Positions 26,308-29,300 of a stretch of 32,000 nt of DNA are shown here, piece after piece. Position numbers and translations under genes: made by a program. Within the stretch, counting starts at the first letter, position 1; each line of letters opens with the position of its first letter. Origin of the DNA: Candidatus Thorarchaeota archaeon (lineage in GTDB: Archaea > Asgardarchaeota > Thorarchaeia > Thorarchaeales > Thorarchaeaceae); the NCBI GenBank assembly GCA_003345555.1, contig PRDJ01000001.1:60001-92000 (forward strand), in the 5' to 3' direction. The notes below the pieces were generated by a model. That model did no database searches, was not told the origin of the DNA, and saw only the letters and a list, made by a program, of their open reading frames with translations.

Positions 26308-29300
26308 CTATGCGACTATCTTCACGGGTTTCAGATTAACGACTCTGTGTTCGCCAGCCGCTGTATCGTACTCCATGAGCCCAACCAATTCCCCTTGAGC
26401 ACCGGGCTCCAGTTCAAATTCGATCTCAGCGACACTCCCGAGACCTGACTCAACGCTACCTATGGTTTGACTCTTTATGGTCTCGGTGAGGTCTGGTATC
26501 GCCAGCACAACTTGGACGTTCTGCATTGCCGTCTTTGAATCATTCCTGATTACCACCCCGAAGATGACCTTTCCTTCACGTATCTTGTATTCCACAAGTA
26601 CATCCATGCCTGCTTCGAGGCCCGGGCTTGTTGGCTCCGCTGCTGTCAGGGGAGCTGCTTGTCGATGCATCTTACGGTATCGTCTGGTGGCAACCCCTGC
26701 AACGAACAGCGCGACGCCAATGCCTATGGCGGGATATGCCCAATGCACATGAGGGTCGAAATCGAGGTTGTCGGGCAAACCGTCTCCGTCTGTATCTGGA
26801 TTTAGAGGATTGGTCTTGTATACGAAGATCTCTGCATAGTCTGACAATGTGTCTCCGTCAGTGTCCCAGTTTAGAGGATCCGTGTAATAGATGAGAGCCT
26901 CCTGACCATCACTCAGGCGGTCCGTATCTGTGTCGTTGTTGAGCGGATTTGTCTGCCAAGTTATGACCTCCACATAGTCGGTCAACATATCTTCATCCGT
27001 GTCCTTTTCTCTGGGATCGGTATCGTATGTCATGACTTCTTGGAAGTCAGACAACCCATCACCATCGGTATCGTCTTTCAGTGGGTCGGTGTAGTCAACC
27101 ATGACCTCGCTGTAATCACTTAGGTGGTCTCCATCGGTATCATTTGAGAGTGGGTTGGTGTGGAGAACTATGGCCTCTGTATAATCTGATAACGAATCGC
27201 TGTCGGTGTCATTGTTCAACGGATTGGTACTGAATACATAAACTTCGGCCCCGTCGAGCAATCCATCACCGTCTGTGTCAGGCTTTAGAGGATTGGTGTC
27301 ATAGTCATCCACCTCAGGACCGTCGAGTAGATCATCGTTGTCCGTATCTGGGTTCATCGGGCTTGTGTAGTAAACACGGAGCTCTTCTAGATTCTCCAAC
27401 CCGTCATTATCGGAGTCCCACAGGGAGTCCAATGAGCCAGGATGGGTCATGTTCGTCAATGGGTTCGTACTGGTGAGAAACAGTTCTTCCCAATCGCTCA
27501 ACAGATCGCTGTCAGTATCGTTTGACAACGGATTCGTGTGGTAGTTGTTGACCTCGTCAGTGTCGCTCAGACGATCCGAATCAGTATCTTCGACCAAGGG
27601 GTTCGTCCCGTATTGCTTTACTTCGGCATAATCGGACAAACCGTCAGCGTCAGTGTCTTTCGCCAGTGGGTTCGTAGAATATGTGTGACACTCTTCCCCA
27701 TTTGTCAACCCGTCACTGTCTTGGTCGTCATTGAGGTCTGAGATTCCATTGCCATTGGTATCCTTGTTTCTCGGGTCTGTCTTGGTCAGCCAGCATTCCT
27801 CGTAGTTCGTCAGTAGGTCACGGTCTTCATCGTCTGCACCGTCTGAGACACCGTTGTCGTTGCTGTCTTGGTCCCGTGGATCCGTCTTTGTCAGATGAAT
27901 CTCCTGCCAATTGGTGAGTCCATCAAGGTCCATATCCCAGTCGGCATCGGAAGTCCCGTCACCCTTGCTGCTGTAACGGAGAGGGTCGGTGAGCGTGATA
28001 TTTGCCTCTTCCAGGTCGCTGAGCCTGTCATTGTCTGTGTCATTGCTCATGGGGTCTGTATGCAGGACTATCTCTTGCCCGTCGAAAAGCCCGTCAGAAT
28101 CACTGTCTTCTTTCAATGGGTCCGTGTTGTAAATGTAAAGCTCCTGTCCATCAGTCAACCCGTCACCGTCAGAGTCTGGATTCAATGGCTCCGTTCCAAA
28201 GACCTTGAGCTCGTCATAGTCCGTCACACCATCTCCGTCAGTGTCAGCCATCGTGGGGTTCGTGTGGAAGGTTAGTATCTCCTCTCCGTCTGTCAGGTCG
28301 TCTCCGTCTGTGTCAATCGCGTTTGGATTGGTTCCATATGAGAAGATTTCATCCCAGTCGCCCAAACTATCTCCATCAGAATCGGCTTTTAGCGGGTTGG
28401 TGTCGCTCGTAAGGACCTCATACCCGTCTGAGAGTCGATCGCCATCAGTGTCTAGCAGTGTGCAGTTTGTCTGGTATGCGTATATTTCGAGGAAGTTGCT
28501 CAACCCATCGGCGTCTTCATCGTCTTGATCGTCTGGAATTCCGTTTCCGTTTGTGTCAGGATTTGTTGGGTCCGTGTGGCTGTTGAATATCTCATCGTTG
28601 TCGGCAAGCTGGTCATGGTCCGTGTCTGGATCAAGGGGATTAGTATGATACTTGTGAATTTCCTCGCTATCTGTAAGGGCATCAAAATCAGTGTCTGCAT
28701 TCTCGGGGTCTGTACCATATGTAATCTCGTCTCCGTCAATCAGACCGTCGCTGTCAGTGTCGTTACTTGTGGGGTTGGTATGATACACCTTCCATTCTTG
28801 CCAGTCCGTCAGGCCATCTGAATCGGTGTCATTCAGACTGGGGTCAGTCCCGAGGTCAATCTCTTCCTTGTCACTGATTCCGTCTTCGTCTGAGTCTGCT
28901 TTGTTCGGATTCGTGCCGTAGTTATTCACTTCATCTCCGTCGCTAATCCAGTCCCCATCACTATCCCAATTCGTTGCGTTTGTATGGGATGTGTACACCT
29001 CATAGTAATCCGTGAGACCATCAAAGTCAGTATCGTTCTGCCTAGGATTCGTATGATGAGTCACAAATTCGGAATAGTCACTCAAGCCATCGTTGTCCGT
29101 GTCCTCGTCAGTAGGGCTTGAGCCCGCAATGTACACTTCCATGCCATCCGATAGCCCGTCAACATCGGTATCTGGATTGGTGGCGTTCGTCTGATATCCA
29201 TATATCTCAAGACCGTTCGGAAGCCCATCACCATCATTGTCGAGAAGGAAGTCGGACGTTCCGTTCATGTATGTCGAGTATCGCGTAGCGTTGGTGAGGA

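Follow-up and report, generated by a model that had tools for sequence, protein, structure and literature searches.

Does the inner end of a giant archaeal surface protein carry a relative of the adaptin and coatomer appendage domains? The question arises from a minus-strand gene in a 32,000-nucleotide stretch of a Candidatus Thorarchaeota archaeon (GenBank assembly GCA_003345555.1, contig PRDJ01000001.1, positions 60,001 to 92,000; hereafter the window), whose product ends in a transmembrane helix and a short beta-rich tail. An original prediction, made from the sequence of the window, read this product as a calcium-dependent adhesion receptor with a beta-COP-like appendage on the inside, and proposed that it links adhesion or cargo capture to proto-coat machinery. 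The genome that we analyzed comprises 2.28 Mb in 82 contigs and is 93% complete. Our results indicate that the tail is very probably an Asgard "ear" (adaptin/COPI-appendage-like) domain reduced to its immunoglobulin-like (Ig-like) half. The reading as a whole, in which a sandwich-only ear tethered to a receptor docks a partner in the cytosol, we hold at a probability of roughly 0.6; the docking role taken by itself is predicted by analogy, at about even odds. Ear-like domains in Asgard archaea and a membrane-linked appendage in Methanobacteriales have already been published, and homologs of AP/COPI domains have been listed in Asgard archaea (Eme et al. 2023; PMC10307638). Among the papers searched, none describes the tail or the giant protein.

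The relatives of the tail were sought with a profile of 54 tails (A2), searched across 400 genomes of the phylum. The profile matched the giant in 63 of the 85 genomes of its own family and a divergent giant of 2197 aa (E 7e-19) in another family of the same order. Six other Asgard families (within f17-f23) were matched as well, usually with one match in each genome (f22, 112 of 135 genomes; f21, 10 of 14). More than 130 genomes in other families carry a single match nearly throughout, and four genomes carry two. In these families, the matches score 29-44 bits and cover tail positions ~20-116. Every locus fetched from these families encodes a cytoplasmic protein of ~800 aa with PCI, E3_UFM1_ligase and DDRGK matches, which we call Loki-type. 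The typical layout consists of Zn ribbons, a UFL1/DDRGK-like PCI/winged-helix array, the sandwich, an alpha/beta region and, in most members, a Vps28 C-terminal domain. A VPS28 match (PF03997) was obtained for 20 of the 27 members, the best at 1.8e-7; for the yeast Vps28 C-terminal domain (2g3k), the match to these proteins has an E of 0.0027. The Loki-type relatives are the class described as Asgard multidomain proteins that join Vps28-C with an "adaptin appendage region", TPR, Ig-like and HTH/PCI domains (Makarova et al.; bioRxiv 10.1101/2024.02.06.579148). One of them, NEF87_003698 of Ca. Lokiarchaeum ossiferum, is annotated solely as "PCI domain-containing protein", and in a variant (L067) TPR repeats replace the winged-helix array. 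The Loki-type protein (L063-L090, e.g. L064:4516-6945, minus strand) is near single-copy in 112 of the 135 genomes of one family and in several others; its ear part is without a Pfam model. In one closed genome, no ESCRT genes were present around the gene for the Loki-type protein.

Direct comparison of the tail with the Loki-type sandwich using hhalign gave a probability of 97.6 and a P of 4.5e-12 over 92 columns at 35% identity, a significant resemblance, at the profile level, to the Ig-like half of Asgard ears. The relationship is reciprocal. A profile of Loki ears (A4) recovered four proteins from the present genome at E <=1.2e-10, namely the tail (41.8 bits, E 1.2e-10, profile positions 4-101) and three proteins with an ear plus Zn-ribbon cassette (42-50 bits, positions 2-150); the sole further match in this genome had an E of 0.37, and none of its DUF11-type Ig proteins was recovered. 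Both the tail and the Loki-type proteins contain a homologous, predicted cytoplasmic Ig-like sandwich. The Loki-type proteins differ in being soluble, with Zn ribbons and the winged-helix array before the sandwich and a platform-like region and Vps28-C bundle after it, whereas in the tail the sandwich stands alone, tethered to the transmembrane helix of a 2,250-aa surface protein. The Thor ear plus Zn-ribbon cassettes belong to the same superfamily through the Loki profile, the Loki-type ear aligning with a cassette over 191 columns at P 1.8e-16. The direct signal between tail and cassette is weak (hhalign P 0.006-0.01), and the cassette hidden Markov model (HMM) misses the tail; the link arises only through the Loki-type profile. 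The cassettes also differ from the tail in keeping the platform subdomain and adding a Zn ribbon, whilst the ears of the two proteins on contig C65 likewise lie at the inner membrane face. These two proteins are membrane-anchored, one of the three cassettes follows a Zn-finger array, and more than 246 homologs of the cassette exist, almost all in Thorarchaeota. In an unrooted tree, the tails, Loki ears and Thor cassettes form three separate long-branched clades, with support of 99/98 for the tail clade, which includes the divergent 2197-aa giant. Because of this separate long branch, the tail appears to be an old, distinct subfamily of the Asgard ear domain; the tree names no donor. Among the 27 Loki-type members, sub-threshold Pfam matches were found to GAE_BBS1 (22), NPCBM_assoc (14), DUF11 (7), Alpha_adaptinC2 (5) and PTHB1_GAE (5), and a protein-language-model search placed the Loki ear beside eukaryotic adaptin/coatomer appendage clusters (0.82-0.87), which we treat as a lead only.

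We further characterized the tail by structure prediction. AlphaFold2, run with an alignment of 13 orthologous tails, produced a seven-stranded model spanning tail residues 23-120 with a predicted local distance difference test score (pLDDT) of 83.6; a single-sequence model of the transmembrane helix and tail (pLDDT 54) was too poor for use. In a Foldseek search of Swiss-Prot models, the coatomer beta appendage sandwich occupied ranks 1-4 (TM-score 0.73-0.74, root-mean-square deviation 2.8-2.9, 19-20% identity). Coatomer beta also ranked 1-2 among AFDB clusters (E 6.5e-6) and was found in an ESM Atlas shape search with a TM-score of 0.78, beside DUF11 and CARDB clusters. Sandwiches of the generic E-set type (transglutaminase C, ApaG/PDIP38, GH2) come within ~1 Z unit. 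The predicted fold is that of a seven-strand Ig-like appendage sandwich, shared with the sandwich subdomain of COPI and AP appendages, with beta-COP first by a small margin over other E-set sandwiches. The second, TBP-like platform subdomain is absent from the tail, since the protein ends one residue past the last strand. The tail's ...NLKPVKIVA aligns to ...IRPKEVQI of the Loki ears, which continue there into a KCPL junction and the platform, and the ends of the A4 matches given above agree with this. Thus, the tail ends exactly at the sandwich/platform junction. As a sandwich-only ear of ~120 residues it resembles the GAE ears of gamma-adaptin and the GGAs (3zhf, 2ymt, 1iu1, 3mnm), whose conserved pocket binds acidic-hydrophobic peptide motifs, but those hang on adaptor subunits, whereas the tail hangs on a receptor.

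The appendage resemblance put forward in the original prediction holds in this restricted form, as a detectable relationship to the Ig-like half of Asgard "adaptin appendage region" domains with beta-COP as the best fold; it does not extend to the eukaryotic families themselves. PF07718 (Coatamer_beta_C) has no match anywhere in the genome, and neither it nor PF02883 (Alpha_adaptinC2) matches the tail even with E values of up to 10 allowed, so that neither gathering score is reached. The COPI beta-COP and gamma-COP appendages (9qpq chain H 711-825; 1r4x; PF07718, PF08752) show no HMM-level similarity to the tail. They possess a platform with the FxxxW motif and a hinge to an alpha-solenoid trunk, of which the tail has neither, its sandwich following the transmembrane helix of a surface protein instead of a hinge to an Adaptin_N trunk within a tetrameric adaptor. 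The proposed calcium-dependent surface protein with a coat-like Ig sandwich on its inner side is borne out in architecture, predicted topology and predicted fold, but it is without platform and trunk, and its sequence relatives are ESCRT-I-like Vps28-C proteins and not coatomer.

The architecture of the whole protein supports an intracellular position of the domain. The product runs from a hydrophobic signal-like segment at the N-terminus through an FG-GAP propeller, TSP3 repeats, the transmembrane helix, the RRYRK patch and the linker to the beta-sandwich, which by prediction sits ~25 residues from the membrane on its inner side. The first 500 residues match FG-GAP_3 (3.5e-12), BBS2_Mid (9.7e-14) and Itfg2 (2.3e-6). 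The ectodomain consists of tandem DxDxDGxxDxxE calcium-binding repeats, as in bacterial TSP3 arrays. In the genome sequence, the whole open frame has 2292 codons and extends up to C1:93186. The real start codon probably lies just ahead of the signal-like segment and not at the start of the open frame, because an ABC-ATPase-like open reading frame on the same strand (C1:93039-94034) overlaps its first ~150 bases. The best 19-residue window of the transmembrane helix has a mean Kyte-Doolittle hydropathy of 1.9-2.8 in the orthologs. Over 50 orthologs, the 15 residues ahead of the helix carry a net charge of -2 to -5, and the 15 residues past it contain 2-8 Lys/Arg in nearly all. Given the signal segment, the calcium-repeat ectodomain, the acidic outer flank and the Lys/Arg-rich inner flank, the tail is predicted to be cytoplasmic by the positive-inside rule, as expected of an Asgard ear; this is a prediction rather than a measurement. 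The helix, RRYRK patch, linker and beta-rich tail had been located and described correctly in the original prediction, as retranslation confirmed, and its placement of the tail inside the cell gains support from the orthologs. Its guess of an Asgard origin was also right, since all 56 related species genomes (Thorarchaeia) are titled Thorarchaeota, Promethearchaeota or similar.

The giant and its tail are strongly conserved. Among species-representative genomes, those of 56 species proved to carry the tail, with identities of 63-88%. A search of its own genome with the tail HMM found no paralog and did not bear out a resemblance of the tail to a module of a propeller-GTPase protein. Orthologs with a complete gene measure 2236-2301 residues, and 35 full-length sequences align essentially gap-free across 2,250 residues. 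In 50-residue windows of this alignment, the propeller shows an identity of 0.36-0.56, the repeats 0.50-0.75 and the tail 0.66-0.71. Mean column identity reaches 79% in the tail (54 sequences) against 61% in the neighboring TPR protein. Within the linker, columns T10, G18, L19, G22 and M23 are invariant and E13, P14 and S16 are conserved to >=96% in 54 orthologs; tail residues 1-15 have a pLDDT below 50, predicting disorder. Sandwich and linker are thus under strong purifying conservation. The linker of this genome contains PTSP, which conforms to the P[ST]xP late-domain motif; as only 4 of 54 orthologs conform, the motif was rejected as a conserved feature. The giant is a predicted type-I membrane protein and a fixed, single-copy, nearly class-wide component of Thorarchaeia rather than a fast-evolving adhesin. 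Since all TSP3 repeats align gap-free in 35 species at nearly constant length, their number and order appear frozen, pointing to a structural "ruler" and not to a variable adhesin.

Table 1 Coordinates of the giant-protein gene, its parts and associated genes (window positions unless a contig is named)
Feature	Position	Strand	Basis or remark
Giant-protein open reading frame	26308 to beyond 32000	minus	Uninterrupted frame on translating 26308-31998
End of N-terminal FG-GAP-type beta-propeller	31846..32000	minus	Rest of gene lies beyond the window
Extracellular TSP3-type calcium-binding repeat array	26743..31845	minus	PF18884 TSP3_bac, E 7.7e-145, 44 stretches
Single C-terminal transmembrane helix WAYPAIGIGVALFVAGVAT, P0001 residues 1753-1771	26686..26742	minus	Exact map from translation
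RRYRK positive-inside patch	26671..26685	minus	Translation
Juxtamembrane linker motif [FY][VI]T-x-AEPAS-x-GLEPGM[DE], near-invariant, predicted disordered	26602..26652	minus	Column counts in 54 orthologs; pLDDT
Final 103 residues of the giant	26311..26619	minus	Stop codon at 26308-26310
Predicted cytoplasmic seven-strand Ig-like beta-sandwich, 98 residues, P0001 1798-1895	26314..26607	minus	Probable sandwich-only Asgard ear member
Last residue (Ala) of invariant ...KIVA end, and stop codon	26308..26313	minus	Related ears continue into platform here
TPR protein gene, 418 aa, predicted cytoplasmic	24908..26164	minus	TPR_2 9.8e-51; candidate partner only
Ear-bearing cassette proteins (ear + Zn ribbon)	C65:8638-9753, C65:10146-12047, C55:3753-6047 (L062)		This genome

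A generic origin of the sandwich has to be weighed against the ear. The tail could be a prokaryotic E-set Ig domain of the DUF11/CARDB/NPCBM_assoc type (PF01345, PF07705, PF10633), serving as an inert spacer or as a self-association or clustering module with no specific relation to ears; we regard this as unlikely. The tail does share with these families the E-set sandwich and a V-x-V-x-N-x-[GS]...N-V-x-V motif, but they usually form extracellular tandem arrays, whereas the tail is single and predicted to be cytoplasmic. On hmmscan it has no Pfam match above threshold. Its only Ig-type weak matches, DUF11 (12.3-12.9 bits against a cut-off of 24.6) and NPCBM_assoc, speak for the generic type, as do the DUF11 and CARDB clusters among its structural neighbors and the many unrelated sandwiches within 1-2 Z units. 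CARDB itself is not matched, and neither the DUF11 nor the CARDB gathering score is reached. The commonest weak Pfam match among the tails is in fact DUF1344 (10 of 13 tails, best E 0.0017). Sequence searches of the PDB with the tail and with profile A1 returned chance matches only (GAPDH, E 0.7). An exhaustive phmmer search of 1.8 billion representatives returned only fragments of orthologs and giants with DUF11 repeats, the latter with E down to 1.8e-12. DUF11 membership by way of this value, obtained for P0006, was rejected: it is the sum of five near-identical repeats of ~10 bits each, and re-scoring leaves no significant single domain, the best reaching 20 bits, so that it is no evidence of membership. 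With hhalign, a DUF11-like profile aligns to the tail over 61 columns at P 5.7e-8, a value biased in favor of DUF11, as the proteins of that profile were picked by their similarity to the tail. Against this, the match to the Asgard ears is four orders of magnitude stronger and covers the full domain, the Loki ear profile recovers the tail and none of the genome's DUF11 proteins, and beta-COP heads the structural lists. Furthermore, the 79% column identity maintained across the class argues for a specific interaction surface. The outcome that would have undone the appendage idea, hits confined to CARDB or DUF11 with no preference for appendages, therefore did not occur. The genome also encodes two apparently cytoplasmic DUF11-type Ig proteins without signal peptide or transmembrane helix, of 604 aa (C42:23793-25604) and 421 aa (C41:22761-24023); the ear profile misses both.

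A second proposal is compatible with the ear and concerns its partner. The TPR protein encoded downstream (Table 1) could grip either the invariant linker motif or the tail's invariant C-terminal ...PVKIVA in its groove, forming a two-gene receptor-adaptor unit; we consider this improbable. TPR domains often bind extended peptides or C-termini, and both the tail and the TPR protein are predicted to be cytoplasmic. The TPR gene lies 144 bp downstream of the giant on the same strand in this genome, and 54 of 56 species genomes have a co-directional ortholog (34-69% identity) at a distance of 0.1-5 kb downstream of the tail. This adjacency is only moderate evidence for a partnership, because the wider synteny is also conserved, with GNAT, SCP2 and NMO genes recurring. 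At ~20 loci other genes intervene between the giant and the TPR gene, often a YhhN-family gene, which stands directly ahead of the TPR gene in ~15 Thorarchaeial genomes. A complex prediction for the TPR protein with the tail scored 0.00 and weighs neither way. TPR plus ear fusions do occur in another Asgard family (L067; mentioned also in bioRxiv 10.1101/2024.02.06.579148). Their use as a "Rosetta stone" for the present pair was rejected, since the TPR parts are merely generically alike (hhalign Prob 19.9). The YhhN gene encodes a 228-aa membrane protein (PF07947; e.g. L006:10413-11102, L023:11540-12223, L057:12325-13011) and was not found in the present genome by tblastn. Elsewhere in the window, positions 17063-20413 on the plus strand encode a 1116-aa protein in which only an N-terminal GNAT domain is recognized; a counterpart of 1129 aa occurs in the equivalent neighborhood on another Thorarchaeial contig (L002).

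The giant's architecture, its predicted topology and fold, the homology of its tail to Asgard ears, the strong conservation and the recurring TPR neighbor come directly from the computation. Building on them, the receptor-tethered ear would work as follows. Outside the cell, the propeller would sit on a long TSP3 stalk; one helix would cross the membrane, and a single sandwich would lie within. The tail may, in the manner of other ear sandwiches and possibly jointly with the invariant linker motif, act as a docking site that keeps a cytosolic partner where the surface protein ends inside the cell. Docking could couple ligand binding by the ectodomain to a sorting, ESCRT-like or scaffold system in the cell, or alternatively could steer the placement and turnover of the giant itself. 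A comparable layout has been described in the "Meth_adaptin" ESCRT loci of Methanobacteriales, where an appendage is fused to GOLD via a transmembrane linker (WP_013898578.1; bioRxiv 10.1101/2024.02.06.579148), giving, by that paper's description, one domain outside, a membrane span and an appendage-like region inside. That protein differs in having GOLD in place of propeller and TSP3 repeats, in retaining both appendage subdomains and in belonging to a Vps4/ESCRT-III locus.

Several points weigh against the docking reading. HMMER links the tail to no eukaryotic appendage family or solved chain. The tail is not adjacent to ESCRT genes; the ESCRT-III genes and a weak Vps28-like match sit on other contigs of the genome, with an ESCRT cluster on C42 (Snf7 at 56685-57155, Vps28-like at 53739-53912). 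The structure of the tail was predicted from an alignment of little depth (Neff ~1.8). The missing platform is the bearer of several known ligand sites of the alpha/beta2-adaptin and COPI appendages. In addition, the DUF11-like alignment suggests that part of the ear signal is superfamily-wide.

More specific forms of the idea are less probable. In one, which we rate as improbable, the giant is a receptor equipped with an ear: when the propeller and TSP3 stalk bind a surface or a partner cell, the sandwich would report this inside and recruit ear-binding ESCRT-like or trafficking factors for local membrane remodeling or cargo uptake. If true, this would represent an archaeal forerunner of the receptor-adaptor link, predating ears in separate adaptor complexes. 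The link to proto-coat machinery in the original prediction, by which an outside ligand would drive vesicle formation or cargo capture through recruitment of an adaptin/coatomer-like trunk, propeller-solenoid proteins and small GTPases, is speculation and very unlikely: the beta-COP fold, the homology to a family related in the literature to adaptin appendages and the position on a receptor-like surface protein favor it, but PF07718 and PF02883 miss the tail, the platform is lacking, the related Asgard ears occur in Vps28-C (ESCRT-I-like) proteins and not in coat subunits, no coat complex is known in this organism, and neither coat-like nor trafficking genes lie within 26 kb downstream or 10 kb upstream of the tail. 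The flanking genes there comprise metabolic genes, GNAT enzymes, an ABC transporter and a 1446-aa membrane-anchored protein. The sole Adaptin_N match in the genome, in a 483-aa protein (37-40 bits), reaches the cut-off only by summing three weak stretches, and the same model matches in 6 of 14 control prokaryotic genomes.

Were the tail merely a spacer, the finding would be an ordinary one. As an ear, it links three previously unconnected groups, namely the tail of the Thor giant, the Loki proteins with Zn ribbons, PCI, ear and Vps28-C, and the Thor ear plus Zn-ribbon cassettes. Appendage-like ear domains are already listed among the eukaryote-like proteins of Asgard archaea. The tail offers a small (100-120 residues), highly conserved and easily expressed bait for the ligands of these domains, with a clear topological meaning, and allows one to test whether binding at the cell surface is coupled to ESCRT-like or other internal machinery.

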